This document shows positions 7,930 through 44,618 of a DNA stretch of 64,000 nt, piece after piece; positions within the stretch are counted from its first letter, which is position 1, and each line of letters begins with the position of its first letter. The DNA comes from an uncultured delta proteobacterium (GTDB taxonomy: Bacteria > Myxococcota_A > Polyangia > Polyangiales > Polyangiaceae), in contig CAWJCS010000003.1 in NCBI GenBank assembly GCA_963841435.1, positions 928,001-992,000 on the forward strand, written 5' to 3'. The notes under the pieces are model-generated. The model had not been told where the DNA came from, ran no database searches, and worked only from the letters and a program-made list of their open reading frames with translations. Made by a program: the position numbers and the translations under genes.

Positions 7930-9159
7930 AGGAACGCGTGCAGCTGCGTGAGAATGGTCGTCTCCGGGGGGCGAATGATCGCGTCGAGTCGAAGATCGAG
8001 GTGGGGCAGGAAGAACCAGGCCGCCGAGGCCCAGACGCCGATCCCCGGCTTGCCGACCGTCTTCGTGGCCTCGAGGCCGAGCACCTGGTCGGCCTTCGGC
8101 TGGCCCGAGTCGAGCACCTCGCCGGTGAGCAGGGCGTGCAGCCCCTGTACGATCTCGTAGTCGGCCTGCAAGAACCCCGTGTAACCGAGCGAGCGCGTCG
8201 AGTCGGTGATGAGGTCGGCCTCGGCGAGCACGGCAACGGGGTCGCCGATGGCGAAGCGCGTGAAGAGCCCGTGAGCGCCGCGCGCGACGTTGGACTCGAG
8301 GGTCAGGCGATCGCGCTTGGCGTACGTGTACAAGCTCGACACGCCGAAGGCGGCGCGGCTGCCCACCATGAGCTCCAAGTAGAAGCTGTAGCCGCGCTCA
8401 CGAAACTCGTCGGGGTTGATCTGGTAGTTACCCAAGATCACCATCCCCTCGCCCCGTACGGCCTCGGAGTTGTAGGCGAGCGCGAGGCCGTGCTCTTGAT
8501 CGGATTCTCGATCGGTGCGCGTCGCCTCCCTCACCCACATCGTGTGCTCGGGGATTCGCACGCCGAACGGCAGGTTCAAGCGCCCGGCGCGCGCCGTCCA
8601 GGTGCCCTCGCCGAAATCCATGCCGATGTAGTGGTTGCGCGAGATGGCGTTGAATTCCTTGCCCTGTCCCGTCGTCACCTGCGCGGCGCGCGCGTGCGGC
8701 GAGCCCACGGCGACGCGCGACGCCCCCACGCTGCCTCCGGCGAAAAAGGAGCCGAAGCGCAGCTGTCCGTACAGATCCATCTGCATCGGGAAGGCCCTGA
8801 AGTCGCCGCTCTTCAGCGTCGACGCCATGCGCAAGCTGCCGCCCATGAGCAGCGGCTCGGGAAGCTGGATGAAGCCGAGGAACCCCGACGTTCGAGCTCG
8901 GCTCTGCCTCCTCGGCGTTCTTTCCGTCGTAGCGCATGCGCAGCAACAGATCGCTCTGCGCGCGGCCGTAAGCCGTGAGCACCTCACCGCCCGACGGATC
9001 GCCGTGGCACACGGGGCAGCCCGTGTACGCATGACGGATCATCCACGTGTACGCGTCGGCACGACGCGGCGTCAGAAGGACGACGGCGAAGCCCGCTGCG
9101 ATCAACAGCGCGCGCAGAAGCCCGCGAAGAGCGGGCGAGGAGTGCGCGGCGACCGGCAT
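7926..9159 (-). CDS. Outer-membrane beta-barrel (porin-like) protein with N-terminal CxxCH haem domain; frameshift near 8891
   Basis: Signal peptide ..RADA-YTWMIRH, CPVCH..GGEVLTAYGR; the second frame carries GRLNLPFG and beta strands ending QLHAFL. Confidence 0.72.
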
Positions 9160-9170
9160 GCGTCAGCACT

Positions 9171-9197
9171 ATTTTACGGCGGCGCACCCGCTGTCAA
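9171..9197 (-). promoter_or_regulatory. Putative sigma70 promoter for the haem-porin operon
   Basis: Minus strand TTGACA-N15-TAAAAT ending 11 nt before ATG 9159; the spacer is short of the optimal 17. Confidence 0.5.
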
Positions 9198-9326
9198 TCA
9201 CAAGAACAGGGTTTTTCTGGTGAAACTCGTGCGCGGTTGGCACAGACGCAGAGCGACGCACGGCAGAGCTCACCCGTGCGCGCAAGCCGTGCGCGGGGGA
9301 AGCCTCGAATCGAGACGGTGTCGCGA

Positions 9327-9878
9327 TCAGCTCTCGCGCAGCTTGAACTTCGCGGTGACCTTGACCTTCGTGTCGGTGCACACGCCGAGGTAGCAGGGCT
9401 TCTCGATGCCGTGGTCGGTGATGTTGACCTCGAAGTTGCCGTTGACGAGCAGGTCGCTGCCGAGCCGCTTCACGGTGTAGTTGAACTTCTTGTCCTTCGT
9501 AACGCCGTGGAGGCGGAACTTGCCGGTGGCGCTGCCCGAAACCTCTTGCTTGTCGGCAGGCATCTTGATGGCGCTCTTCTCGACGGTGAGGCTTGCGTCG
9601 GGGAACTGCTCGACGCCGAGGTAGCGCCCCGTGTGCTTGTCCCTGAGGCCGATGCCCGTCTTCAGGTTCTTGAGCGACGCCTTGAGGACGAGCTTGCCGC
9701 CATCCTCCGCTGCCGTGAGCTGGTTGCCGTGACCGTTGATCTTGAGACCGCCCGGCCCGGTGGCAGTGAACGTCACGTCCGGCTTGTCGATGACTTTCAG
9801 GGAGGAGGCCGCAGCAACGGCCGCGAAAGTGAGCGCGGCGAGCGCGGGTGCGAAGCGAGCAATACCGAAACGGGCCAT
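9327..9878 (-). CDS. YceI-family (lipid/polyisoprenoid-binding) periplasmic protein
   Basis: LKTGIGLRDKH, FPDASL, GKFRLHGVTK, FEVNITDHGI; signal peptide; AAGGAG RBS. Confidence 0.88.
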   Translation of the reverse strand: MARFGIARFAPALAALTFAAVAAASSLKVIDKPDVTFTATGPGGLKINGHGNQLTAAEDGGKLVLKASLKNLKTGIGLRDKHTGRYLGVEQFPDASLTVEKSAIKMPADKQEVSGSATGKFRLHGVTKDKKFNYTVKRLGSDLLVNGNFEVNITDHGIEKPCYLGVCTDTKVKVTAKFKLRES

Positions 9879-10055
9879 CCAACAGTTCTCCTTGACCTTG
9901 TTCACTCTGGAATGCCCGGCGCCTTCAGCGCCGGGTCCACGAATCCACAAAACGTACTACGGGGCATCGGGGCGACGGATTCCCTAGAATATTAAGTAAG
10001 AGTGTTTTCCACATCTTAGCGAATCATGTTTTTATGTGAATGGAATTTTATTTCG

Positions 10056-10697
10056 TCAGGAAGGGACGAGCGGGGCGTAGAGCGCCGCTCGGCGCTCCTT
10101 GCCGCAGAGCGGCCACCGAAACGCCACCTCCCGGACCAGGGACCAGCCCTCTCGGGCAGGGAGCGCCCCCCGCGCCATGAGCACCCAGACTCCCCGGCGC
10201 GCAATGCGAGCCCCCTCGGCCAGCCACTCGGGCGGAGGCAGCGTCGCACGCGAGATGGCCACGTCGAACGACGCCGCCGCGAGCGACTCCGAGCGGGCGC
10301 GCTCGACGCGCACCGAAAGCGGCGCGAGGGACGCCAGGGTCGTGCGCAGAAACGCGACGCGCTTGGCGCGCGGCTCGAGCAGCGTCATGTCGAGGTCGGG
10401 TCGGAGCAGGCCGAGGCCGAGACCGGGGGCGCCGATGCCGCTTCCCACGTCTACCCAGCGTTCTTCGCGCGCCACGAGACCGGAGGCGACGATGGCGGCC
10501 GCGTCGGCGAACAGCAGGTCGACGAGCTCCCCTGGGTCGCTCACGCTCGTGAGATCGATGCGCGCGTTCCAGGTGACCGCCCGCTCGACGAACGTCACGG
10601 CCCGAGCCACGAGGGGCGACCCCTCTTCGGAAAGGAGGCCGAACGCCCCGAACTCGCGTGCGACGAGCGCGGAAAAGTCGGGACCCGAGTTGGCCAA
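10056..10697 (-). CDS. rsmG: 16S rRNA m7G527 methyltransferase
   Basis: WNARIDLTS, VDVGSGIGAPGL, LLEPRAKRVAFL, DVAISRA. Confidence 0.88.
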   Translation of the reverse strand: MANSGPDFSALVAREFGAFGLLSEEGSPLVARAVTFVERAVTWNARIDLTSVSDPGELVDLLFADAAAIVASGLVAREERWVDVGSGIGAPGLGLGLLRPDLDMTLLEPRAKRVAFLRTTLASLAPLSVRVERARSESLAAASFDVAISRATLPPPEWLAEGARIARRGVWVLMARGALPAREGWSLVREVAFRWPLCGKERRAALYAPLVPS

Positions 10698-10725
10698 GGG
10701 CCCAAGAGTACTCTAGGAAGAGCGC

Positions 10726-11772
10726 ATGGTGCCCGCCGACGCAGCGCCGCCCTTCGGGGACGTGGCGTTGGAGCTCCTTGGTCGGGTCACGGGGCGCGCG
10801 GGGCCATTCGCGCTGACCGAGCTCGCAGGCGGCGCGTCGCCGCGGCGCTTTCTGCGCGTCGAGCTCGGTCCCGGGCAGCACGCCGTGCTCATGGTCGTCC
10901 CGCCCGAAACGCCCGACGTGGCGTTCGCCCGCGAGCGCGGTCGCCCCTGGCCGTTTCTCGAAGTGCGTGAGCTGCTCGAAAGCCGGGCCGTGCGCGTGCC
11001 TCGTCTGCTCGCCGAAGACCTCGCGCGCGGCCTTTTGCTCGTCGAGGACCTCGGGGTCACGCTCGCCGAGCACCTCGAACGCCGGCCTTTCGATCGCGAG
11101 CGACTCTACCGGCGCGCCGTGGTCGACCTCGCACGCGCGCAGGCGGCGCTCGAGCCGCTCCCCGAGGGGTCCGTCGTCGGCGAGCGGGGCTTCGACGAAA
11201 CGCTGTTTCGCGCGGAGCTCGAGCATTTCTGGGAATGGGCCGTCGTGGCGCGTGGCGTCGCGGGCGGCGCGCGGGCGGACTTCGACCGCGCCGTCGCGTG
11301 GCTGCTCGCAGAGCTCCTCGCGCTGCCTCGCGGCTTCTGCCATCGCGACTATCAGAGCCGCAACCTCATGGTGCTCGAAGCCGAGCGCGGCGACACCGAG
11401 CTCGCGTGGATCGATTTCCAGGACGCGCTGCTCGGGCCGCGCGCCTACGATCTCGTCGCGTTGCTCTGCGACAGCTACCAGCCGTTCGACCTCGCGTTCG
11501 TCGACGCGAGGCTCGACGACTACGCGGCGGCGCGCGAGCTCGACGCGACGGAGCGGCTCACGCTCGGTCGCGAGTTTGCGCTGCTCGCCGTGCAGCGCAA
11601 ACTAAAGGACGCCGGGCGCTTCGTGTTCATGGAGCGCCGGCGAGGCGATCCGAGCTTCCTCCCCTTCGTTGACCCGACGCTCGCGATGGTGCTCGCCGTG
11701 CTCGAGCGCCTCGGCGAGAGCGCCGTGCTCGGTGGCCTCGCGGCGCTCGTGCGGACCGCTCAGGGGCGCTGA
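10726..11772 (+). CDS. APH-family phosphotransferase, AmgK-like (MurNAc/GlcNAc anomeric kinase)
   Basis: GGASPRRFLR, LLVEDLG, CHRDYQSRNLM, IDFQDALLGPRAYDLVALL, QRKLKDAGRF. Confidence 0.85.
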   Translation: MVPADAAPPFGDVALELLGRVTGRAGPFALTELAGGASPRRFLRVELGPGQHAVLMVVPPETPDVAFARERGRPWPFLEVRELLESRAVRVPRLLAEDLARGLLLVEDLGVTLAEHLERRPFDRERLYRRAVVDLARAQAALEPLPEGSVVGERGFDETLFRAELEHFWEWAVVARGVAGGARADFDRAVAWLLAELLALPRGFCHRDYQSRNLMVLEAERGDTELAWIDFQDALLGPRAYDLVALLCDSYQPFDLAFVDARLDDYAAARELDATERLTLGREFALLAVQRKLKDAGRFVFMERRRGDPSFLPFVDPTLAMVLAVLERLGESAVLGGLAALVRTAQGR

Positions 11773-12696
11773 CCGGGCGGCGGAGGTGAGCTCGGATGGA
11801 GCGGCGCCCACACGTCGTCGAGCGCGCCGTCACAGAAAAGCAGCCAGCTCTGGTCCGGCAGCCCGACGCGGGCGGCGACCTCCCGAAGCACGCCGAGCGC
11901 GCGCTCGACCCCGTCGAGCGCCAGGTCCACGTACGAGTAGCGCACACCGACACCGCCTCCCACGACGCGCCCGCAGCGCTCCGACACGAGCGCCGCGTCG
12001 AGCGCGTCCTCGAGCACGCGGCGTGCCGACAGCGCGAGCCGCGGCTCGAGCTCCTTGCTCTTGACCTTGAGATAGCAGAAGAGCTCGCCGTGCCTGGAGA
12101 ACCGGCGCGACGCGAACGGCGCTCCACTCAGAAAGCACTTGAGCATCTCCGGCATGAACGTCGAGCAGAGCGCCACGTCGGTCTGAGCCGGGTAGTCGCG
12201 GGCGGGCTCGACGTTCGAGCTCGAGCAACGTCCAGCGCTGCTCGCCACCGAGCGCCCAGAGCGGACACGCCGGCAGGCCCTCGTAGAGACCCGAAACGGC
12301 GCGCGCGCACGTAGCGGGCAGCTCGGCGACGGGCCAGAACCTCGGGGCCCCCGCTTCCGCTTGCAGCACCGCGAGCGCGCCGCCGCGCGGAGCGGGCTGC
12401 ACGGCGAGCTCACCGACGAAGTCGTTGACGAAGGCGTCTCCAGCGAGCCCGCGCACGAGCTCGGCGGCGGCGGCGTGCTCGGTGTCGGTGCCGCGCCCGC
12501 CGGGTAGCTCGATGAGCACGTCGAGCAGGTGCCCCCGCGCGAACCCGGTGCGGGCGCGGGCGCGCGAAAGATCGATGCCGGTCCGTTCCTGCGTGCGCCC
12601 GACGGCCGCGTCGAAGTCGACCGCAGCACGCCCGCGCTCCGGCGACAGACGCAAAAGGAGGTCTCGCTCGGGGGGCAGAGCGCTCGGCGTCGGCAT
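11760..12696 (-). CDS. Hypothetical protein, frameshift near 12214
   Basis: Protein-like N-terminal half in the 11830..12696 frame and C-terminal half in the 11760..12629 frame (GRVVGGGVGVRYSYVDLAL). Confidence 0.65.
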
Positions 12697-27545: not shown

Positions 27546-28961
27546 TCAGGCTAGCTGCGTGAGCGGCCCCGTGTCGGGGTTGACGTTGCCGACGCTCGTC
27601 GTGCTCGACATGCCCATGAGCTGGCAGATCGACACGAGGAGCTTGGCCGACGCTTCCTTGTTCACGTCGAGAAAGCGTCCCGTCGAAAGGCCGAGCGAGC
27701 CGCCGCCCGCCATCACGGCGCACCAGGGCTGCATGGCGTGCGACGTCGTCCCGAGCTCGCGCGCCCAGACGACGAGCGTGTTGTCGAGCAGCGAGCTGCC
27801 GCCCTCGTCGATCGCGTCCATCGCCTGGAGCATCGCGACGATCTGTTCGCAATACCAGGTGTCGATGGCCATGAGCTTGTCGCGGTTGTCGGCGTTCTGA
27901 TGCGACATGGTGTGGTGCGCCACCGTGTGGCCGAGCCAGGTGTGCGTCACGTTGCTGAAGCCGCAGCTCAGCTGCACGCTCATCACACGGGTGAGATCGC
28001 AGGCGAAGACGTGCGGCACCAGGCCGAGCATCGCGCCGACCTCCGCCGGGAAATTCGCGTTGTTGGCGGAGCGTCCACTCGCCTCGGGGCGAGCCGGCAG
28101 GGTGCATCCGACCACGGGAGCGGGCGGCATGGCCTTCACGCGTGCCTCGATGGCGCGGAGCCCCGCGAGGTGCGCGTCGATCTTCGGGTACTCTTCCGAG
28201 CTTACCTTGGTGCGTAGCCGGTCGAGGTCGCTCATCACCAGATCGAGAATGCTCGTCTGCTCGAGCTCTTTTTGCACGGCCGCGGGATCGACCATCGGCG
28301 GCTCGCCCGTCGACGGCATCACGCCCGCGAAAAGCCGGTCGAAAGCGGCTTGCGGGTTCGTTTCCGGGTGCAGCGGCTGGTCGTCGCCCTTGTAGATGAC
28401 GCGCGTCACGCTCGTGGGGTTGCCGCACTGCACGCCGAGCTCGACGGTGCGATAGGACGTCTCGAGCATGGGATCCGAAGGCGAGCGCAGGTAAGGCAGC
28501 CCGTCGCCGTACGCCGCTGCCACGATCTGATCGACCGAGGGGCCGCTGCCCCAGCCCGTGCGATGCCCATTGCCGCCGTCGAAGTCGGCTCCGTTGCCGG
28601 GATCCTTGAGCTTTGCTCCCGTGAACATCCCGGCGCTGCCGAAGGCGTGCTGCTCGCCCGCTCCGGTTGCGCTCATCTTGAGGCCCCAGGGGATCACGAT
28701 CTTTTGCTGGAGCGGTGCGAGCGGCTGGTGGATCGGGTGCAGCGTGAACGCCGTCTCGCTTCCCTGGGGCTTCCAGTCGATGGGGCCCGCGGAGCTGTCG
28801 GAGTCGGCCGTGCCGTCGGGCGTGAAGATCAAGAGCAGTCGCTTCGGCCGTGCCAGCTCCTGACCGCTCGCGTTGAGCAGCGGAACGAACGGCGCGGCGG
28901 CCGTGCTGATACCCAGGCTCTTCAGAAAGCCGCGACGGGAGAGGAAGGGGCGGGATCTCAT
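27546..28961 (-). CDS. DUF1552 domain protein (Tat-exported)
   Basis: SRRGFLK twin-arginine signal, PSVDQ, ACDLTRV, HHTMSH, SLLDNT. Confidence 0.9.
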   Translation of the reverse strand: MRSRPFLSRRGFLKSLGISTAAAPFVPLLNASGQELARPKRLLLIFTPDGTADSDSSAGPIDWKPQGSETAFTLHPIHQPLAPLQQKIVIPWGLKMSATGAGEQHAFGSAGMFTGAKLKDPGNGADFDGGNGHRTGWGSGPSVDQIVAAAYGDGLPYLRSPSDPMLETSYRTVELGVQCGNPTSVTRVIYKGDDQPLHPETNPQAAFDRLFAGVMPSTGEPPMVDPAAVQKELEQTSILDLVMSDLDRLRTKVSSEEYPKIDAHLAGLRAIEARVKAMPPAPVVGCTLPARPEASGRSANNANFPAEVGAMLGLVPHVFACDLTRVMSVQLSCGFSNVTHTWLGHTVAHHTMSHQNADNRDKLMAIDTWYCEQIVAMLQAMDAIDEGGSSLLDNTLVVWARELGTTSHAMQPWCAVMAGGGSLGLSTGRFLDVNKEASAKLLVSICQLMGMSSTTSVGNVNPDTGPLTQLA

Positions 28962-28973
28962 CGTGATTCCGTA

Positions 28974-30815
28974 TTAATTGCCGATCGCGCGCACGTGGCG
29001 GAACGCGGGGGATAGGACGATGGACGTGATGAGGTCGCGCACGTTGCCAGTCGTGGCGAAGCTCTCGTGAATCGCGCGTAGCGCGCAGCCGTCGTCGGTG
29101 GATTCCATGCGACCGAGCGAGTAGCGGAACCACTGGTTGGCGACGCAGTCACTCACCGTGCGGCTCGCCGCGAGGCGCTGCCCGAGCTCGACGCCGCCGA
29201 CGTAGGGGACCTCGAGGTCGGGGCCGGCGTCGTAGATGACGCCCGTCGCGTCGATCGTTTCGCCCCCTTCGGTGGTGCGGTACTTGCCGATGCCGTCGTA
29301 GTTTTCGAGCGACAGCCCAATCGGGTCCATCTGCGTGTGGCAGCCGCCGCACGTGGGGTCGGACTCGTGGGCCACGAAGCGGTCGCGCGCCGTGGGGCCG
29401 AGCGAGGGCGGCAGCGGCGACGCCATCACGTCGAGCGGCGGCGGCTCGATGGGCTGGCACAGGATGTTCTCCCGCACGGCGATGCCGCGATGAACGGGCG
29501 AAGGGGAGTCCCCACGGTAGTGCTTCACGAGAAAGGCAGCCTGCGTGAGCAGCCCGCCGCGCTCGGTGGGATCGAGCTCGACGCGCGTGCCGGGGGTAAA
29601 GCCGGGCGGCTCGGCAAGACCGTAGGTCCCGAACAGCGGGCCCTCGGGGAAGGAGAAGCTCGCCGTGAACAGCGTGCTCAACAGGCCGTCGCCGCTTCGG
29701 ACGACGTAATCGGTGAAGGTCGTCGTCTCGTCGATCATCGCGGTCGCAACGTCCGGCTGCGTCTGGCCGAGCGTGCCGAACTCGTTCGCGTTGATGGCGA
29801 GCCACTGCAAGTGGAACGACGGCACGGAGTCGCGCGCCTTCGGGTCGGCGAGCATGCGGGCGACCTGGGCGTCGAGCGTCGCGTCGTCGTCGAGCGCGCC
29901 CCCGGCGGCGAGATCGAAGAGCGCCTGGTCGGGCATCGTGTCCCACATGAAGTACGAGAGGCGCGAGGCGAGCTCGTACGACGTGAGCGGTTCCGGCTTG
30001 GCGGACGGCGCGCCGCTCGCGCCGATGTCGGCGTGGTAGAGGAAGAACGGCGATTGGAGCATCGCTTCCACGACGAGGCGGAAGCCGTTCGTGGCGTCGC
30101 TCCCCCCGACGGCGAAGAGGGCCGCGTAGGCGTCGACCTCGGACGGCTCGAGCGGACGGCGGTAGGCTTTGAGCCCGAATTCGGCGATGAAATTTCGAAC
30201 GCACGCATCGCCCGTCGCAAGGTCGCAAGGCGAAAGCTCGGCGATGCGGCTCTTCGCGCCGACGGCCAGCGCCTGTGCCGCTTCCTGGAGCTGCTGAACC
30301 ACGAGATCGGTGATGGGCGAGATGGCGTTGCTCGTGAACGGACCCACGGTTTCGTCGGGGGAGATGCCCGCGGCGGGGGTTCCCGTCGCGCCCAACAGAT
30401 CGCGCACGGTGTGCTCGTACTGTGTTCGCGTGAGCCTCGCGACACGGCTCCGGCCGACGCGGAGCTGATCGCCCGTCTCGCTATCGCATTGGTCGGCGGG
30501 CGGATCCACGATACCGCCGCTGCCCGACGCGCCGGCGCTGCCGCCGGTGCCACCGCCCGTGCCGCCCGTGCTCGCGCCGCCTGTCGCCGACACCGAGCCG
30601 CCAGTGCCACCGGATGCCGAGCTGCCACCGGATGCCGAGCTGCCGCCCGTGGCACCCGTGCTGCTCGTGGCCCCGCTGCCCGTCGCGCCATCGGAGGTCG
30701 AGTCACTACTGATGGTGGCCTGACAACCGACGAGCGAAAGCGCGCTCAGCACGCCGAACAGCGTGAGACGCTGAGCGGCGAACGCGGCGCGGATGGGTCG
30801 CTCGTTTGCCATCAC
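28974..30815 (-). CDS. DUF1592/DUF1588/DUF1595/DUF1587/DUF1585 lipoprotein with CxxCH
   Basis: Lipobox LVGC, Gly-rich linker, RLTRTQYEHTVRDL, YELASRLSYF.WDTMPD, SPVHRG, CGGCH. Confidence 0.9.
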   Translation of the reverse strand: MMANERPIRAAFAAQRLTLFGVLSALSLVGCQATISSDSTSDGATGSGATSSTGATGGSSASGGSSASGGTGGSVSATGGASTGGTGGGTGGSAGASGSGGIVDPPADQCDSETGDQLRVGRSRVARLTRTQYEHTVRDLLGATGTPAAGISPDETVGPFTSNAISPITDLVVQQLQEAAQALAVGAKSRIAELSPCDLATGDACVRNFIAEFGLKAYRRPLEPSEVDAYAALFAVGGSDATNGFRLVVEAMLQSPFFLYHADIGASGAPSAKPEPLTSYELASRLSYFMWDTMPDQALFDLAAGGALDDDATLDAQVARMLADPKARDSVPSFHLQWLAINANEFGTLGQTQPDVATAMIDETTTFTDYVVRSGDGLLSTLFTASFSFPEGPLFGTYGLAEPPGFTPGTRVELDPTERGGLLTQAAFLVKHYRGDSPSPVHRGIAVRENILCQPIEPPPLDVMASPLPPSLGPTARDRFVAHESDPTCGGCHTQMDPIGLSLENYDGIGKYRTTEGGETIDATGVIYDAGPDLEVPYVGGVELGQRLAASRTVSDCVANQWFRYSLGRMESTDDGCALRAIHESFATTGNVRDLITSIVLSPAFRHVRAIGN

Positions 30816-30885
30816 GTGGTCCTCGAAATCGACAGTGCCTCGGGCCCGTGGAAGCAGGCCGAGCTGAAACGATTAAGTTACTATG

Positions 30886-37650: not shown

Positions 37651-37669
37651 GGTTCTTGGGAGGTCGAGC

Positions 37670-38110
37670 GGCGGCCGTTCCGGCGGTTTTGGTTTGGGCG
37701 CGGCCGCCCGCGACGATCGTGATCTGGTCTTCCAAGACCGAGATGTCGTTGCAAGAGGGGGCTCTCGTGCCGCGTGATCCCGCGACGTTGGGAGATCGGT
37801 CACTCGAGGCGAACCGCCCTGCGACTCTGGCAAGCCCAAGACAGCCGGCGGCCGTTCCGGCGGTTCTTTGGTTTGGGATGTGGCGACTCGTGACGATCGT
37901 GATCTGGTCTTCCAAGACCGAGATGTCGTTGCAAGAGGGGGCTCTCGTGCCGCGTGATCCCGCGACGTTGGGAGATCGGTCACTCGAGGCGAACCGCCCT
38001 GCGACTCTGGCAAGCCCAAGACAGCCGGCGGCCGTTCCGGCGGTTCTTTGGTTTGGGATGTGGCGACTCGTGACGATCGTGATCTGGTCTTCCAAGACCG
38101 AGATGTCGTT
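37670..38110. repeat. Intergenic tandem array, 180-bp unit (2 identical copies plus partials), homologous to the 2169-3365 array
   Basis: GACGATCGTGATCTGGTCTTCCAAGACCGAGATGTCGTT at 37712, 37892 and 38072; degenerate partial unit at about 37670-37711. Confidence 0.95.
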
Positions 38111-41100
38111 TAGGGAAACGGCGGGCCCTGGGGGGCTGTGGTCGTCGATGTGAGGTCTTTGGGTGGGGCGTCGCGGGCCATGACCTGCGATGCCGTCGTC
38201 AGGATGTCGGGCTTGACGGCGATGTCGAGCTCTCGCCCGCTCACCGAGCCGTGGCACCCGGCGCAAAGGCCCCCGAACAGGTCGCGACGGAAGCTCTGCC
38301 GCGCGTCCTCACCTGGATAAAACTGCGTCTCCTCGCGCTGGGCGTGTGCGGACGGGCCACTGTCCGTCGCAAGCTTCACGCTCGCCTCGAGCATGACGGG
38401 CACGCCGCCCGGCACGATCATGCCCGCCGACGAATCGGCCTGCACCGGCACGTTGCCGAGGAACTGGCGGCGCGTGTAGAGCTGCCCGTACTTGTCGTTG
38501 ACGACGAAGCTGCCTCCCGACGCGAAATCGACCACGCCCTGATCCGGCGGCAAGCTCTCCCACACGCCGAGGCGCGGCCCCGAGGGGATGGGCCTGCCCG
38601 TTCTCGTGTTCTGGAACAGCAGGCTCTGGAGCACCCCGACGTCGAGAATCGTCACGCGCGCCTTCGTGCCCGGGCCGATGGTCGTCGCGGCGTTCGCCTC
38701 GTCGTAGCGCGAGCGAAAGACGCCCGAGTTCTGCTTCGCGTAGACGGCGGCGGGCCAGAGGCAATCGCGGCTCCCGTCCGAGACCAGCGTCGTGCGCCCG
38801 CCCGTTTCCGGATCGACGACCGCGATCTCGAACTTGCCGGAGAAGGCGTCGAGCGCCGTCACGGTGGGCGCGTAGCTCACGAGCAACCGGCCGTCGGGAA
38901 GCGGCGAGGGGTTGCGGTAGGCGCCCTGCGTGCCGGAGAGCTTGCCCGTCGCCGCGCCATCGACGAGCGCGAGGGAATGCTGGAAAAAGTCGGGGCTCGG
39001 CTTGCCGATCGCCGTCGGATCCACCGTGTAGTCGTCCGGATCGGCGCTCGCCTGATCGATGCCGATGCTGCGGTTGACGACCGCGAGCGCGCCCGCACCC
39101 CGCTCGGCGCCCTTGTCGCTCAGAATCATCGCGAGGTTCTTGTCGGCGAGCTCCACGACGTCGGTCAGCTGCGTAAAATCGATGGTGCTGCGCTGGCCGA
39201 AGAGCGGGTGGTAGTCGCCGCCGTCCAGATTGATGCGGCGACCCGCGAGCTGGTAGAAATCCGGCGCGCGCTTTTCGGTCGTGAAGATCACGCGCCCGTC
39301 GCGCATGAACGACGGCAAGAGCTCCTGGTTCGTGAGAAACGTCAACTGGCGGATCTTGCCGCCCGTCTCACGAACGTAGAGGTTGGCGTTCAGCTTGCTC
39401 GGATCGGCGGGCGTGCGCTGCGGGCCCGAGTAGCCGATCTCGTCGACGTTCGTGATGTTGCCACGCGTCGAGACGAAGACGATGCTCCCGTCGGGAGCGA
39501 AAGCGGGATCGAAGTTGTGGACGAGCGCGCCGTTCGCGAGCACCGGCCGGCCCGCGTCGTCGATGGGAGCGGCCTCGATGGCCGGATCGAGAGCACAGGC
39601 GCCGCCGTCAACGACGTAGACGTGGAACGGATCGTTTGCGCCGCTACGCGCCGCGAAGGCGATGCGATTGCCGTCCCAGGAGACGGCCGGGCGGCGCGCA
39701 TCCGTCGTCGCTGAGTCGAGACCGCAGAGAGCGCTCAGGCTCGTCTCGGCGCCGGTCGAGAGCGTGCCGTCGGTCGCGCGCGATAGCGCGACCTCGACGA
39801 CCTCGGCGCCGGGCCGGTAGGTCGCGAAATCCTGCGGCAAGTCCGCATCGGCGGGCGCCGGCGCGCGCACGAAGGCGAGCGCTCCGAGCGGCGTGCTCGT
39901 GCCCATGCGCGCCGTGCGTTCGAGCTCGAACCAGCGGCGCACCACGCAGTACGGCCGCTGCTCGTCGAGCGGCCCCGTCTCGGCGGCGACGGGATCGCAG
40001 ACGTCGTCGAGCTCGGCCGGTCCGAACAGATTGCCCCCGCGGTGGCGAATGCCGCCCGCCGATGGCGACAGGTTCTTCCTGATGAGCCGGCTCGCGTTGG
40101 GATCGGGCGACTCGAGCGCGAGCTGCTCCAGCGACAGCTCGTAGTTCTTGCGCGTCGCCGGCAGACCGAAGTGCCCACCCGCGCCGCCACGCAACCGGTA
40201 GTCGTGGAACATCGACGGCGAATGGCAGCCGAGGAACATGCAGCCGCGCTTGACGAGCATCGGCTGCACACGGTCGGCGAAGAACATGAAGCCGGGGTCG
40301 GTGGGCACGCGAGTGGGCCCGCCTTTTTCGGCGGCCCAGGCCTCGAGGGCCACGTAGCCTTGGTCGTCGCGCGAGGCGAACACGGTACCGCCCTCGTGGA
40401 AGCTGCCGCCCGCGTCGCGGGACAGGGCGCGCCTGAGCATCTCGCTCGACGACGTGTTCGCCGAAACGTAGTCGGCGAACACGAAGTAGTTCCAGCGCAC
40501 CTGCTCCGGGCTCGCCCCGCAGGTAAGGTGCATGACGTTGGCGCGCGCGCCGTGGCAGTTGCCGGCCGCACAGCGCCCCGCGATGACGGGCTCGACGCGC
40601 GAGACGAACGTGCCGTAGTCGGGAGCCGCGGGGTCGACCGAGCCGTCGAACGCGGGGTCGTTGCCGATCAGCTCCGTGCAGGGGTCGAGAGCGGGGCGTC
40701 GCTCGGCGGGCTTTGCGTTGTTCTCGGCGGCGCCGTTGTCGATCCAGGTCTGTAGTGTCGTGAAGGTCGCGCTCGTGAAGTCGATCTGCGAGCGGCCCGC
40801 ATGCGTCACGTCGGTCGTGATGAGCACCGGGGGCGCGTCGTCCCACTTCGACAGCGAGATCTTGTAGGGGGGGACGACCTTGAGCAGCAGCCCCGGCACA
40901 CCGTACGGCCCGTAGTCCACCAACAGGTCGCGCCGGAGGTTCAGCGTGTCGTAGGTCTCGGTGCTCAGGTTGCCGAACGCGTTGCCACCGGGGTCGGCGA
41001 CGTGGCAGCTCGAGCGCGTCGGGCTGATCGAGCAGTTGCCGTGCAGGACCGGACCGATCTTGCGATCGTAAAAGGTGGTGCGCTCGGGCTGCTCGTCCCG

Positions 41101-41160
41101 CTGGCAACCGATCCCACCGAGGCCCACGGCGAGGAGCACAAGGGCGCGCGCTCTCTTCAC
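38110..41160 (-). CDS. Large lipoprotein with beta-propeller (PD40/TolB-like) and hydrazine-synthase-alpha-like haem domain
   Basis: Lipobox GIGC; PAVSWDG, DPAFAPDG, PSFMRDG repeats; LGNVPVQADSS..VPGGVP..PGE..CAGCH; also CAAGNCH and CMFLGCH. Confidence 0.75.
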   Translation of the reverse strand: MKRARALVLLAVGLGGIGCQRDEQPERTTFYDRKIGPVLHGNCSISPTRSSCHVADPGGNAFGNLSTETYDTLNLRRDLLVDYGPYGVPGLLLKVVPPYKISLSKWDDAPPVLITTDVTHAGRSQIDFTSATFTTLQTWIDNGAAENNAKPAERRPALDPCTELIGNDPAFDGSVDPAAPDYGTFVSRVEPVIAGRCAAGNCHGARANVMHLTCGASPEQVRWNYFVFADYVSANTSSSEMLRRALSRDAGGSFHEGGTVFASRDDQGYVALEAWAAEKGGPTRVPTDPGFMFFADRVQPMLVKRGCMFLGCHSPSMFHDYRLRGGAGGHFGLPATRKNYELSLEQLALESPDPNASRLIRKNLSPSAGGIRHRGGNLFGPAELDDVCDPVAAETGPLDEQRPYCVVRRWFELERTARMGTSTPLGALAFVRAPAPADADLPQDFATYRPGAEVVEVALSRATDGTLSTGAETSLSALCGLDSATTDARRPAVSWDGNRIAFAARSGANDPFHVYVVDGGACALDPAIEAAPIDDAGRPVLANGALVHNFDPAFAPDGSIVFVSTRGNITNVDEIGYSGPQRTPADPSKLNANLYVRETGGKIRQLTFLTNQELLPSFMRDGRVIFTTEKRAPDFYQLAGRRINLDGGDYHPLFGQRSTIDFTQLTDVVELADKNLAMILSDKGAERGAGALAVVNRSIGIDQASADPDDYTVDPTAIGKPSPDFFQHSLALVDGAATGKLSGTQGAYRNPSPLPDGRLLVSYAPTVTALDAFSGKFEIAVVDPETGGRTTLVSDGSRDCLWPAAVYAKQNSGVFRSRYDEANAATTIGPGTKARVTILDVGVLQSLLFQNTRTGRPIPSGPRLGVWESLPPDQGVVDFASGGSFVVNDKYGQLYTRRQFLGNVPVQADSSAGMIVPGGVPVMLEASVKLATDSGPSAHAQREETQFYPGEDARQSFRRDLFGGLCAGCHGSVSGRELDIAVKPDILTTASQVMARDAPPKDLTSTTTAPQGPPFP

Positions 41161-41272
41161 GGTAGCCTCATCCTAACCGCCACGACGGCGCGTGGCCACA
41201 CGCGTCTCGCGCCACCGTCACGGCCCACGACCCGGAGGTCGTCCATCCACCGCGAGGGTGGCGTCAACGCAC

Positions 41273-42211
41273 CTACATCCGAGCGAGGGCGACCCGCGCG
41301 GCGTCACGCACGAAGGAATCGGGGTCGCCGAGGGCCGCGCGCACGGTGTCGAGAGCGCTGGGATCGGCAATCTGGCCGAGCGACCAGACGGCGGCCTTGC
41401 GCACGCTCGCGTCGGGTTCGTCGGCCGGTGTCGTGAGCGCCATCAGGCCGTCCACGGCGTCCCCGACGCGCATCGTGCCGATCGCGAGCACGGCAGCGCG
41501 CCTCACGTCGACCGAATCGTCGCCGATGCGTTCCACGACCGCTTCGACGTCATTGAACGCATTGACGCGCGTCGAGGCTTCGACGGCGGCGAGCCGCACG
41601 CGAGCGTCCTCGTCCGACATCGCGAACGACAGCTCGTCGTTCGGACCCACGCTGCTCAGGCGCTGCAACGCCCGAACCGAGGCCTCGCGCACCACGGGCG
41701 ACGCGTCGTTGCGAATCGCCGCGGCGAGGTACTTCGCTCCCGAGAGCGTCAAGAACTCGCCGAGCGCGCTCGCTGCGTGAGCACGGCGCGCTTCGGTCGC
41801 GGAGGCGTCACCGAGCGTCGCGGCGACCTCGGAGTACACCTGGCCGGGGCCGAACACGCCGAAGATGCGCCGCCTCAGCCACCAGGCCGCGATCTCGCGC
41901 GTCTTCGCGTTGCCGTCGTACAGCAACCCGGAGACCAGCGAGATGCACGAGAGGCACTCCATCTTCTCGCCGTGCTCGAGCACCTGCCAGATCTTGGTCG
42001 GTGCCACGACAGGCTTCAGATCCTTGCCGAACATCGACCGGATCACCTCCGGCGAGCTCACCGACTCGAGCGAGGAGCTTTGGAGGTTTTGGTAGACGGC
42101 GGCGCGCCCCGAGTGGGTGCTCTGATCGTTGTCCGCGTGCGCAGAGGACGAGACTGCCGCGAGGCCGAGTGCGGCCGCGCTCACCAGAAAGCGTCGAAGA
42201 ACGTTGTCCAT
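41273..42211 (-). CDS. Exported HEAT/PBS-repeat protein
   Basis: Signal peptide ..AHA; repeats VREASVRAL, VRLAAVEA, VRRAAVLAIG, VRKAAVWSLG, VRDAARVAL; CLSC motif. Confidence 0.85.
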   Translation of the reverse strand: MDNVLRRFLVSAAALGLAAVSSSAHADNDQSTHSGRAAVYQNLQSSSLESVSSPEVIRSMFGKDLKPVVAPTKIWQVLEHGEKMECLSCISLVSGLLYDGNAKTREIAAWWLRRRIFGVFGPGQVYSEVAATLGDASATEARRAHAASALGEFLTLSGAKYLAAAIRNDASPVVREASVRALQRLSSVGPNDELSFAMSDEDARVRLAAVEASTRVNAFNDVEAVVERIGDDSVDVRRAAVLAIGTMRVGDAVDGLMALTTPADEPDASVRKAAVWSLGQIADPSALDTVRAALGDPDSFVRDAARVALARM

Positions 42212-42238
42212 GGCTTTGCCTCAAATCTCCTTGGGGAC

Positions 42239-44566
42239 CTAGTACTGGCTCCCGCCGCCGCTGACGGGGTCGTTCGCGAACGGAACGAAGTCGGTGTTCT
42301 GACGGGAGTAGTACTGCCCGCCCATGTCGATGGCGCGAATCAGCTTGGCGAGCTCCTCGCGCGTCAGGCCCACCTCGGCCGCGTGATCCCAGCGCGTGCC
42401 CGCGATGGTGCCCTTGTTGTCGTCCACGGGGAACGGCTGGCCGAGCGCCCAGGCGTACTCGCTCGGGTTGCCCTCGGCCGCGACGTTGAGGACCTCGATC
42501 ATGCGGCTGTGGCGCGCATCGCTCGGCACGGCCCAGCGCGGCGGGACCGTACCGGTCACCATCGCACCGTCGAGGTTCATCTCCATCTGCAGTGCGGCCG
42601 GGTAGAACAGCGACACGTAGGAAGCCGGCCAGGCGCGCGTCTCGCGATCGTAGGTCACGGTGATCTCGCGGCTCGAGAGGTCGAGGCGCGGGATGTCGTA
42701 GGTGTCGGTGACCTCGCCGGTGACGGCGTCGGTCATCGTCACCTGGTAGAACTCCTGCGCCTTACTGCCGTTCGTGGTCTCGTTGTGGCACTGGACGCAC
42801 TTGGCATCGAGCAGCGCCTGGATCTCGTTCGCGTTGCCCGCCTTGGCGTAGGCCCAGGGGTACTCGACGCGATCGGCAACGGCGAGGTTGAACGGTTCGG
42901 GGTTGTTGCCCGCCGCGATCGTGAGCTGCTGGTCGGCGGGCAAGATCGCCTTGGTGCGATCCTCGTGGCAGCCGCCGCAGATGCGGCCCTCGCCCGGCAT
43001 CCCCTGAATCCAGGTGGTCTGGCTGCGAATCGACAGACCGAAGCGATCGATGGGCTGCAGGTGCATCGGCACGTAGGGCGGCACTTCCGCCATCCAGGAG
43101 CCGTCCTCGTTCACGCGAGCTTCGCCGAGCATCGCGGCTCCCTCGGCCATCGTCAGGCCGAACATCGTGGCGCCGGGGGCGGACTCGGTGGAGAAGCCCT
43201 CGATGATACGCACCTTCACGGCATCGCCGAGCGCGCGATCCATCGGCGTCCCGGCGGGAAACTGCGCGCCCTCCACGGTCTCACCGTGGCGCGCGTAAAG
43301 CGAGGTCTGCGTCACGTCGATCGAGCCGACGATGGCCGGCTTCGAGTCGTCAACCGTGTCCTGCCGGGTCGGCAGGATGGCGGGCTCGTCGCGCGCGACG
43401 ATCGGCCGGGCGTAGATCTCCCAGCTGCCTTCCCAGTTCTTCACGAGCTGGTTCTCGCCGCTCTTGGTGTCGTAGACGTAGATGCCGTAGTCGGGCGGCG
43501 TGAGCTCGAACTCCATCGTGTCGTTGACGACGCCCGGGGCCCACGAAACCAGCAAGCGACCGTCGGGCAGCATCGCGGGCGAGCGGTAACGACCGACGGG
43601 CGACGGGCCGTCACCCGTGGGCACGAGCGGCGTCACGAGCGAGAAGGCGTCCTCCTTTTCCTCGTCGACACGCAGCGCGTCAGCGGCGCTCCGGGCGTCG
43701 TAGCGGAACAACGAGCCCGCCTGGATGGTGTTCTCGCGATTGGTGACGACGCCGTAAAAGACGTTGGGCGTCGTGCCCTCGGTGACCTGCACGAGGGAGT
43801 TGCCCGGCTTGCCGTGCTGGCCGCCGAGCGCCGTCATCTGCGTGCAGTCCGGGTTCATCGCGAAGAGCTTCACGTCGTTGACGTTCTCGAGGTGCTCCCA
43901 GCGCGAGAAGCCCACGCGACCGTCGTCCATCGAGAAAAGCGTCACCGTGTGCGACAGATTCTGCGAGCAGAGCTTGCGATCCGCGTCGCCGCCGTCGAGC
44001 GAGACGGACCCGAGCTGGGTCACCACCTGCGAGTGGTTGTACTCGTCGGCGCGCGTGCCCATCTGCGTGTAGCCCTGGTTGGTCACGAACACGATGCGGT
44101 TGCCCGTCGACCAGATGGCATTGATGTCGTCGTAGTTACCGAAGGTGAGCTGGTGGATCTCGCTCTCGCCTTCGGCGAGGCTCGCCCAGTACACGTGGTA
44201 CCGATCGCTCGCCTTCGTCTTCATCGTGAAAAGGACGCGGGTCGCGTCGTAGCTCACGTCGACGCTCGAAACGTCCGCCTCGGGGTAGCCGGCGATGAGG
44301 TTCGTGATGTCGCCCGTCCTGAGATCGAGCACCTCGAGCCGCCCACCGGGCTCGTAGCGGCCGTAATCCATCACCTGGCCCATGCCGCCCGCGACGTCGA
44401 TGGCGGTCACGTCGCCGTTGCCGTCGAGCACGGTGTGCTGGCGCACGGCGTAGACGATCCGACCCACGTCGTTTTTGCCCTGATCCTCGGTGGACGTTTG
44501 CCCTGAGCACGCGGCGAGGCCGAGCAACGTCAGGATCGGGAGCGAGGTCTTGAGCGAGCGAACCAT
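42239..44566 (-). CDS. HzsA-related lipoprotein (beta-propeller + HZS-alpha middle-like domain, two CxxCH)
   Basis: Lipobox LAAC; DVSYDA, SRWEH, YRSP..LPDGRLLVS; LGEARVNEDGSW.AEVP..PMHLQPID..TWI..PGE.RICGGCHE; CVQCH; AGGAG RBS. Confidence 0.8.
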   Translation of the reverse strand: MVRSLKTSLPILTLLGLAACSGQTSTEDQGKNDVGRIVYAVRQHTVLDGNGDVTAIDVAGGMGQVMDYGRYEPGGRLEVLDLRTGDITNLIAGYPEADVSSVDVSYDATRVLFTMKTKASDRYHVYWASLAEGESEIHQLTFGNYDDINAIWSTGNRIVFVTNQGYTQMGTRADEYNHSQVVTQLGSVSLDGGDADRKLCSQNLSHTVTLFSMDDGRVGFSRWEHLENVNDVKLFAMNPDCTQMTALGGQHGKPGNSLVQVTEGTTPNVFYGVVTNRENTIQAGSLFRYDARSAADALRVDEEKEDAFSLVTPLVPTGDGPSPVGRYRSPAMLPDGRLLVSWAPGVVNDTMEFELTPPDYGIYVYDTKSGENQLVKNWEGSWEIYARPIVARDEPAILPTRQDTVDDSKPAIVGSIDVTQTSLYARHGETVEGAQFPAGTPMDRALGDAVKVRIIEGFSTESAPGATMFGLTMAEGAAMLGEARVNEDGSWMAEVPPYVPMHLQPIDRFGLSIRSQTTWIQGMPGEGRICGGCHEDRTKAILPADQQLTIAAGNNPEPFNLAVADRVEYPWAYAKAGNANEIQALLDAKCVQCHNETTNGSKAQEFYQVTMTDAVTGEVTDTYDIPRLDLSSREITVTYDRETRAWPASYVSLFYPAALQMEMNLDGAMVTGTVPPRWAVPSDARHSRMIEVLNVAAEGNPSEYAWALGQPFPVDDNKGTIAGTRWDHAAEVGLTREELAKLIRAIDMGGQYYSRQNTDFVPFANDPVSGGGSQY

Positions 44567-44618
44567 GGTCAGACTCCTTACGGGGGCCCAGGGCAGGCTA
44601 AGGGCCACCCCCAGCTGT

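Follow-up and report, generated by a model that had tools for sequence, protein, structure and literature searches.

A conserved three-gene locus of Polyangia encoding two HzsA-like lipoprotein-type proteins and a secreted HEAT-repeat protein

Gene content of the locus

The stretch of DNA analysed here (the window) comprised 64,000 nt, positions 928,001 to 992,000 of contig CAWJCS010000003.1, from an uncultured delta proteobacterium of the Polyangiaceae (GCA_963841435.1), and had a G+C content of 70%. The window contained a trio of consecutive minus-strand genes encoding two proteins related to the alpha subunit of hydrazine synthase (HzsA) and, between them, a HEAT-repeat protein. All three were recognised as genes by codon bias, with frame-specific G+C at third codon positions (GC3) of 0.88-0.90. 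The genes of the trio were:

42239..44569, minus strand: gene A, a 776-residue lipoprotein-type protein with a six-bladed TolB-like propeller, a middle domain of the HZS_alpha type and a haem-type domain at the C-terminus (GC3 0.89; ribosome-binding site and ATG; PF18582)
41273..42211, minus strand: a secreted HEAT-repeat protein of 312 residues, following A (HEAT_2, 86.1 bits)
38110..41160, minus strand: gene B, a 1016-residue lipoprotein-type protein in which three atypical haem-type modules precede a propeller and an HZS_alpha-like middle domain (GC3 0.90; alignment; fold)

Gene A started with an ATG at 44569 and had AAGGAG 8 nt upstream, so the end at 44566 given in an earlier note on this DNA is 3 bases short. 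The intergenic gaps were 27 nt between A and the HEAT gene and 112 nt between the HEAT gene and B. Upstream, the trio was flanked by a divergent hisIE gene and, downstream, by a convergent gene for a 608-residue zinc-ribbon protein, which limits the unit to three genes. A response-regulator gene lay about 1 kb upstream of the trio on the other strand. No nitrogen-cycle genes were found among the annotated flanks of the trio in the window.

Protein A

The N-terminus of A (MVRSLKTSLPILTLLGLAAC) contained the lipobox L-A-A-C, and the candidate lipobox Cys was kept in 37 of 40 relatives. Pfam model PF18582 (HZS_alpha) matched A at 54.5 bits against a gathering cut-off of 26.6, and weak cytochrome c matches were found at the second CxxCH. 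The corresponding features were:

42962..43162, minus strand: match to the HZS_alpha middle domain (PF18582), ending in haem motif 1, CGGCH (42965..42979)
42785..42799, minus strand: haem motif 2, CVQCH, residues 591-595, at the position of HzsA haem alpha-II (invariant in 40/40 sequences; colinear phmmer stretch to HzsA 648-665)

Haem motif 1 (C531/C534/H535) was likewise invariant in 40/40 sequences. A sequence search of the PDB with A returned HzsA (5c2v_A) as the sole match (E 1.6e-8), in three colinear stretches. The AF2 model of A had a pLDDT of 86.1 and a pTM of 0.86. With this model, the top Foldseek match was again 5c2v_A (E 1.6e-30, TM 0.65), followed by TolB (TM 0.30). VIA aligned 586 residues of A and HzsA (model 34-762, chain 55-803) with a Z of 35.0 and a root-mean-square deviation of 2.9 Å. 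By its predicted structure, A is thus homologous to HzsA over the full length. The alignment offset would place H729 of A, kept in 35/40 sequences, near His772, the distal ligand of the bis-His haem alpha-II of HzsA. Strongly conserved polar residues of the propeller in the 40-sequence alignment were D175, E176, Y177, H207, W224 and H226.

Protein B

The N-terminus of B (VKRARALVLLAVGLGGIGC) contained a candidate lipobox, G-I-G-C, which is atypical at position -3; its Cys was kept in 25 of 26 relatives. B contained the following features:

38146..39888, minus strand: propeller and middle domain, residues 425-1005, paralogous by alignment to A 35-562, with haem motif CAGCH at 38251..38265 (BLASTP, hhalign)
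40711..41079, minus strand: module 1, residues 28-150, with C43-x8-C52-H53 (x6 to x9 in relatives) and invariant H120 (alignment; hhalign to module 2, 51%, E 1.6e-4)
40294..40632, minus strand: module 2, residues 177-289, with C197-x4-C202-H203 and invariant H255 in GG.FHEGG (alignment; hhalign to module 3, 96%, E 1.5e-9)
39901..40293, minus strand: module 3, residues 290-420, with C307-x4-C312-H313 and invariant H319 and H373, the latter in G.RHRGG (alignment, hhalign)

BLASTP aligned residues 444-970 of B to A at 24% identity (E 3e-8), pairing their CxxCH motifs, and hhalign of B against A gave a probability of 100% (E 7e-43) over 480 columns. Over the propeller and middle domain, these alignments mark B as a paralogue of A. 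The haem motif of this region, C966/C969/H970, was invariant in 26/26 sequences. B ended about 45 residues past its CxxCH and thus has no counterpart of the C-terminal haem domain of A. The AF2 model of B had a pLDDT of 75.8 and a pTM of 0.81, and its best PDB match in Foldseek was 5c2v_A (E 7e-19, TM 0.47), covering the propeller and middle domain only. The matches listed in a wide VIA search with the whole B model were propellers. PF18582 gave no match at E<=1 in the B of this genome; 12 of 26 orthologues had sub-threshold matches, the best at 6.9e-4, and the B of this genome reads ADSSAG at the position of the family-consensus DGS. The earlier note had described two beta-propeller lipoproteins, each with an HZS_alpha segment: Pfam recovers the segment in A, whereas in B it is recovered by alignment to A and not by Pfam. 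The motifs listed in that note omitted the three N-terminal CXnCH motifs of B and the second CxxCH of A.

Residues 28-420 of B formed three tandem modules. The Cys-Xn-Cys-His motif of every module was invariant, and the later invariant histidines, candidate distal ligands, sat in G-rich turns. These N-terminal modules had no Pfam match at E<=10, and a profile search of the PDB with the region returned only a chance match (E 2.1). Some B clusters carried a precomputed PF26549 label. Atlas leads at 0.86-0.88 pointed to cytochrome c clusters. When the module profile was searched against longer proteins, the matches listed (120 of 572) contained no new architecture, all being B orthologues or fragments. 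AF2 confidence fell below 50 at the motif loops of B (residues 44-65, 245-257, 310-319 and 967-974), a drop that would fit missing cofactors in the model. We infer from these sequence features that each module is a small cytochrome domain of the c type whose attachment motif, where haem would be bound, is stretched. Cx4CH binds haem in cytochromes c3, which are matured by ordinary Ccm systems; longer CXnCH spacers need special lyases in MccA-type proteins. Haem-attachment genes in the genome included CcmF-like, CcmC-like and CcsA-like genes and two CcmE genes. The Cx4CH and Cx6-9CH modules are uncatalogued, and counting CXXCH motifs would therefore give too low a number of haems for these proteins.

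Strongly conserved polar residues of the B propeller were H548, D557, R641, R642, D646, D649, Y650 and H651. The conserved polar propeller residues of A and B suit catalysis rather than a passive role.

A 180-bp tandem repeat (37669..38110; 2.5 copies, 96% identity) lay between the zinc-ribbon gene and B and reached the stop codon of B. A terminator-like hairpin opened each copy, and the first 80 or so bases had seven weaker copies (75-84%) elsewhere in the genome.

HEAT-repeat protein

The protein encoded between A and B had a signal peptide and matched HEAT_2 (PF13646) in three stretches at 86.1 bits (cut-off 27.7). With the following feature, this agrees with the earlier description of an exported HEAT protein with a CxxC:

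41945..41956, minus strand: CxxC of the HEAT protein, C86-C89 (invariant in 25/25 sequences)

In the 25-sequence alignment, the block at residues 78-115 contained invariant L78, E79, E82, E85, C86, C89, W110, W111, R113 and R115; no Pfam model covered this block. The CxxC is followed by I or V and is thus not a haem site. Weak matches to the bilin-lyase models CpcE and NblB, far below cut-off, reflected generic HEAT-repeat similarity.

Conservation and distribution

Synteny was scored in 80 related genome loci, of which 73 contained a complete A with at least 1.1 kb downstream and 57 had at least 4.5 kb downstream. The HEAT gene was next after A in 73/73 loci with room for it, and B was present downstream in 57/57; the trio is thus syntenic in relatives, as the earlier note had supposed. 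Close relatives shared all of the neighbouring genes, hisIE, ATE and the response regulator among them, so synteny in these relatives alone proves little. At 15 loci with 45-49% identity the trio was kept and none of the flank genes of the window adjoined it; four of these loci had only weak (32-37% identity) protein-kinase/response-regulator matches elsewhere in the locus. Five loci came from other families of the class, at about 30-35% identity. Four of the five had A, HEAT and B in order, and the fifth (G115) had A and HEAT only, with B on the same contig 40 kb away. A sixth distant locus (L099) contained only a B-like gene.

An insert of 1.4-2.6 kb separated the HEAT gene from B in six of the 57 loci, and in the two loci examined the inserted gene was on the opposite strand. 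These inserted genes encoded an EF-hand protein and an LMF1 protein; showing no relation to one another and running against the trio, they were rejected as a fourth component.

Distribution was assessed in 301 genomes sampled evenly across the phylum, with a threshold of E<=1e-115 for full-length B. A was found in 28 of the 301 genomes, 25 of which were labelled as belonging to the same family, order or class, and full-length B was found in exactly these 25. Another 35 genomes of the phylum had B-like proteins that match B from about residue 180. Of the 23 genomes sampled from the window's own family, 12 contained the trio. A housekeeping role, prompted by the neighbouring hisIE gene, was rejected on this last count and on the differing flanks of the distant loci. 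The locus is a conserved three-gene unit of the class Polyangia. The wider HzsA-like superfamily comprised at least 2546 sequence clusters, and one cluster was traced to the Nannocystaceae. A look-up of sequencing runs listed no RNA run; one soil metagenome contained 0.14 of the sequence words.

Single in-frame stops were present in the B orthologues of four genomes (G240, G270, G090 and G290; TGA in two, TAG in two), for which a pseudogene, an assembly error or read-through is possible. Some genomes contained a second match to B: full-length at about 50-53% identity in G190, G300, G125 and G275, and at 38% in G090. Two such second-B loci were fetched (L113, L114) and had no A or HEAT gene alongside. 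In G105 the second match was a B-like gene of 32% identity, aligning from residue ~178 (L112).

Hydrazine synthase hallmarks

The trio is almost certainly not a hydrazine synthase, because the position of Tyr591 is not occupied by tyrosine and because no beta or gamma subunit is encoded in the genome. Tyr591 is the iron ligand of haem alpha-I in HzsA. At the Tyr591 site (four residues after the haem-motif His), HzsA reads CSGCHYGSY, A reads CGGCHEDRT (threonine) and B reads CAGCHGSVS (serine). No column with a conserved Tyr (>=80%) occurred in A between H535 and residue 651, and none occurred in B after H970. The HzsA equivalog model NF052339 scored 48.7 bits with A and 25.8 bits with B (30.9 and 16.5 in the genome search) against a cut-off of 800. 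Beta and gamma subunit genes were absent from the locus, and the best genome match to the fusion model NF052342 reached 32.2 bits against a cut-off of 1250. That match lay in a 1755-residue open frame on another contig, and control genomes such as E. coli gave similarly weak matches. The earlier note was therefore right to report HzsA-like haem-type proteins in a non-anammox myxobacterium, given the HZS_alpha match and the fold matches of A and B, and right that the partner subunits are missing, here genome-wide as well as at the locus. Its suggestion of N-N chemistry was not supported by the Tyr591 site or by the equivalog models.

The 1755-residue open frame (G000:C6, ~770,000-775,000) had three colinear weak matches to the beta-gamma fusion model (52-185, 428-587 and 632-687; best 32 bits). 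These suggest a propeller and a CCP-like build; the frame is unlinked to the trio.

Electron-transfer context

A hidden Markov model of the B modules found one more copy in the genome, a 164-residue lipoprotein encoded immediately behind a DUF3570 gene of contig C4, and a weaker module protein (325 residues) two genes upstream. This C4 cluster (L115; G000:C4:584001-603000, ~8321..11848, minus strand) contained genes for the 325-residue protein, a 215-residue protein of no known kind, DUF3570 (445 residues) and the 164-residue Cx4CH lipoprotein, and had no B-like gene nearby. In 14 B-like loci of other Myxococcota (L099-L112), the B-like protein had two Cx4CH modules in 14/14 and a small single-module protein adjoined in 14/14. 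DUF3570 was present in 13/14 of these loci, ApbE in 8/14, a di-haem oxidoreductase (DHOR) in 3/14, imelysin in 2/14 and a HEAT gene in 0/14. In the B-like cluster, an HzsA-fold protein may be the terminal component of a flavinylation-type electron-transfer system, and the B-type module is by these neighbours linked to flavinylated DUF3570/ApbE systems.

In eight Sandaracinaceae-like loci, a DsbD_TM-Thioredoxin_7 gene adjoined A divergently. By tblastn, the ApbE gene of the present genome lay at C3:914133, outside the window, and DUF3570 genes lay on C4 and C6. A DsbD-thioredoxin homologue with 48% identity to the Sandaracinaceae-type neighbour was located on C2 (~662,700-672,100), about 6 kb from an imelysin-DHOR pair.

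Other features of the window

A DUF1552 (HXXSHH) gene followed by a gene for a DUF1592/DUF1588/DUF1595/DUF1585/DUF1587 protein (PSCyt3/PSD domains) occupied 27546..30872 on the minus strand. Such a pair is typical of Planctomycetes.

Proposed function and alternatives

In our judgement the trio is probably an extracytoplasmic multi-haem electron-transfer oxidoreductase and not a hydrazine synthase. A and B would be anchored to the membrane as lipoproteins. In each, a single c-type haem with ordinary His ligation would sit where the propeller meets the middle domain, as the catalytic haem alpha-I does in HzsA. A would wire this junction haem through the second haem of its C-terminal domain, and B through its three N-terminal cytochrome-like modules. 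The HEAT protein, with its CxxC and acidic block, may be a thiol-based electron or assembly partner, or a scaffold holding A and B together. The most likely route of electrons from the membrane would be an extracytoplasmic carrier of the DsbD or flavin type. A small substrate may be turned over at the propeller/haem pockets, which would differ between A and B. A more specific scheme, in which a DsbD-type protein reduces the CxxC of the HEAT protein and the HEAT protein passes electrons to two HzsA-fold haem enzymes, one of them with three stretched-motif haems, is rather unlikely as a whole. Were such a thiol-fed oxidoreductase real, the HzsA fold would serve catalysis widely and its anammox use would be one late specialisation, and counts of 'hzsA' in metagenomes would be unsafe as an anammox marker.

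Several observations weigh against the oxidoreductase proposal. Haem binding at Cx6-9CH would be unusual. The DsbD neighbour occurs in a single clade and may reflect lineage synteny, and tblastn of the genome found no ApbE, DUF3570 or DsbD homologue in the window. The inserts between the HEAT gene and B mean that B is not always co-transcribed with the other two genes, and the presence of the trio in only part of its own family marks it as accessory and dispensable. For HzsA-like proteins outside anammox bacteria, no substrate, cofactor or activity is shown in the main text of PMC12758564.

The most concrete rival is redox chemistry of iron or another metal for assimilation, in which periplasmic iron would be oxidised or reduced. 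The E-x-x-E...E-C-x-x-C block of the HEAT protein would then bind metal; E79, E82, E85, C86 and C89 are invariant, and E-x-x-E is presumably an iron motif. The DHOR and imelysin (M75, EfeO-type family) genes beside some B-like relatives would suit such a role, as would the ABC-3 metal-transporter permease also carried by L099 and the link between DUF3570 and related clusters and iron transporters reported in PMC8238504. No transporter, imelysin or DHOR gene, however, was found beside the trio in the window or in the related loci examined, and the imelysin-DHOR pair of the genome is on another contig; we regard the metal reading as unlikely. Were the HEAT protein not a subunit but a chaperone or lyase helper dedicated to maturing the haem sites of both large proteins (the stretched CXnCH motifs included), its tight tie to A across a 27-nt gap would be expected, its invariant CxxC could keep apoprotein cysteines reduced, and the weak resemblance to the HEAT-type bilin lyases CpcE and NblB would gain meaning. 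That resemblance is generic, however, B-like proteins with two Cx4CH modules occur at all 14 loci examined and none of these loci has a HEAT gene, and ordinary Ccm systems cope with Cx4CH in cytochromes c3, which makes a maturation role quite unlikely.

A non-catalytic redox sensor or envelope scaffold, the first of which had been raised in the earlier note, would draw on the likeness of the propeller to TolB, an envelope interaction protein, and on the nearby response-regulator gene. Yet the 15 more distant loci retain the trio without the regulator and hisIE neighbours, the regulator being kept only in close relatives with a fully syntenic neighbourhood. None of the three proteins has a kinase or transmembrane signalling domain, and a sensor would hardly call for as many as five or six haem sites. 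The sensor found no specific support, and this reading is very unlikely. Redox chemistry on carbohydrates is more improbable still, there being no sugar-binding module in A or B and no CAZyme context around the trio. Least probable of all is true N-N or N-O chemistry akin to that of hydrazine synthase. A shares the whole HzsA fold and a haem motif at the alpha-I position, and PMC11828985 treats such homologues as anammox potential; against this stand the lack of Tyr591, the equivalog scores, the missing beta and gamma subunits, the annotated flanks with no nitrogen-cycle gene, and the rejection of this chemistry for other non-anammox homologues in PMC12758564.

Comparison with known systems

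The DsbD/ApbE/DUF3570 clusters (Meheust et al. 2021, PMC8238504) are the nearest parallel for the context of the B-type modules. DUF3570 was experimentally shown there to be flavinylated by ApbE. Its gene usually lies in clusters with genes for DsbD, a CXC protein and a thioredoxin-like protein, and the paper gives the end function of these extracytosolic electron-transfer systems as unknown. The B-like relatives and the stand-alone B-type module likewise adjoin DUF3570 and ApbE genes, and one clade of the trio has a DsbD-thioredoxin gene alongside. The trio locus of the window differs in having no such genes, and HzsA-like or CX4CH-module proteins are not mentioned in the accessible part of that paper. 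TolB (PDB 2HQS and others) shares the six-bladed PD40 propeller and is the second-best fold match to A (Z 27); it has no haem domains, and the likeness is limited to the propeller.

HzsA of Kuenenia stuttgartiensis (5C2V chain A) resembles A in its three-domain build and in both CxxCH positions, and resembles B in the propeller and middle domain. The differences are an identity of 16-22%, the absence here of Tyr591 and of beta and gamma partners, and, in B, three N-terminal modules in place of the C-terminal haem domain. Both trio proteins are moreover predicted lipoproteins of an aerobic soil lineage. The Zn site of HzsA is formed by Cys303 and His587, of which Cys303 is missing from some anammox bacteria themselves (PMC12758564).

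HzsA-like proteins outside anammox bacteria are already published. HzsA homologues in ten phyla have been counted as anammox potential in metagenomes (PMC11828985), and Myxococcota is not in the list shown there. In none of the papers searched, including PMC11828985, as far as its accessible text goes, and the main text of PMC12758564, in which 'Myxococc' and 'HEAT' are absent, did we find the trio, the triple module with stretched motifs or the connection of that module to DUF3570/ApbE; to that extent the trio is undescribed, as the earlier note had held. Knowing the substrate would give a function to the HzsA-like superfamily.

Among the closest published relatives are the non-anammox HZS-alpha homologues of clades I-IV (Hagglund et al. 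2025, PMC12758564), which have a canonical haem pocket, no Tyr591 and a TM to HzsA of ~0.66, and for which the authors conclude against hydrazine synthesis. A shares with them the distant HzsA fold, the lack of Tyr591 and a similar TM. Those clades were chosen for a co-located homologue of the beta-gamma fusion, and an FG-GAP protein is often present too, whereas the partners in the trio are a HEAT protein and an alpha-like paralogue. A full-fold HzsA relative, as modelled, is thus conserved in aerobic soil myxobacteria without the catalytic tyrosine or the partner subunits, which supports the cautious reading of PMC12758564.

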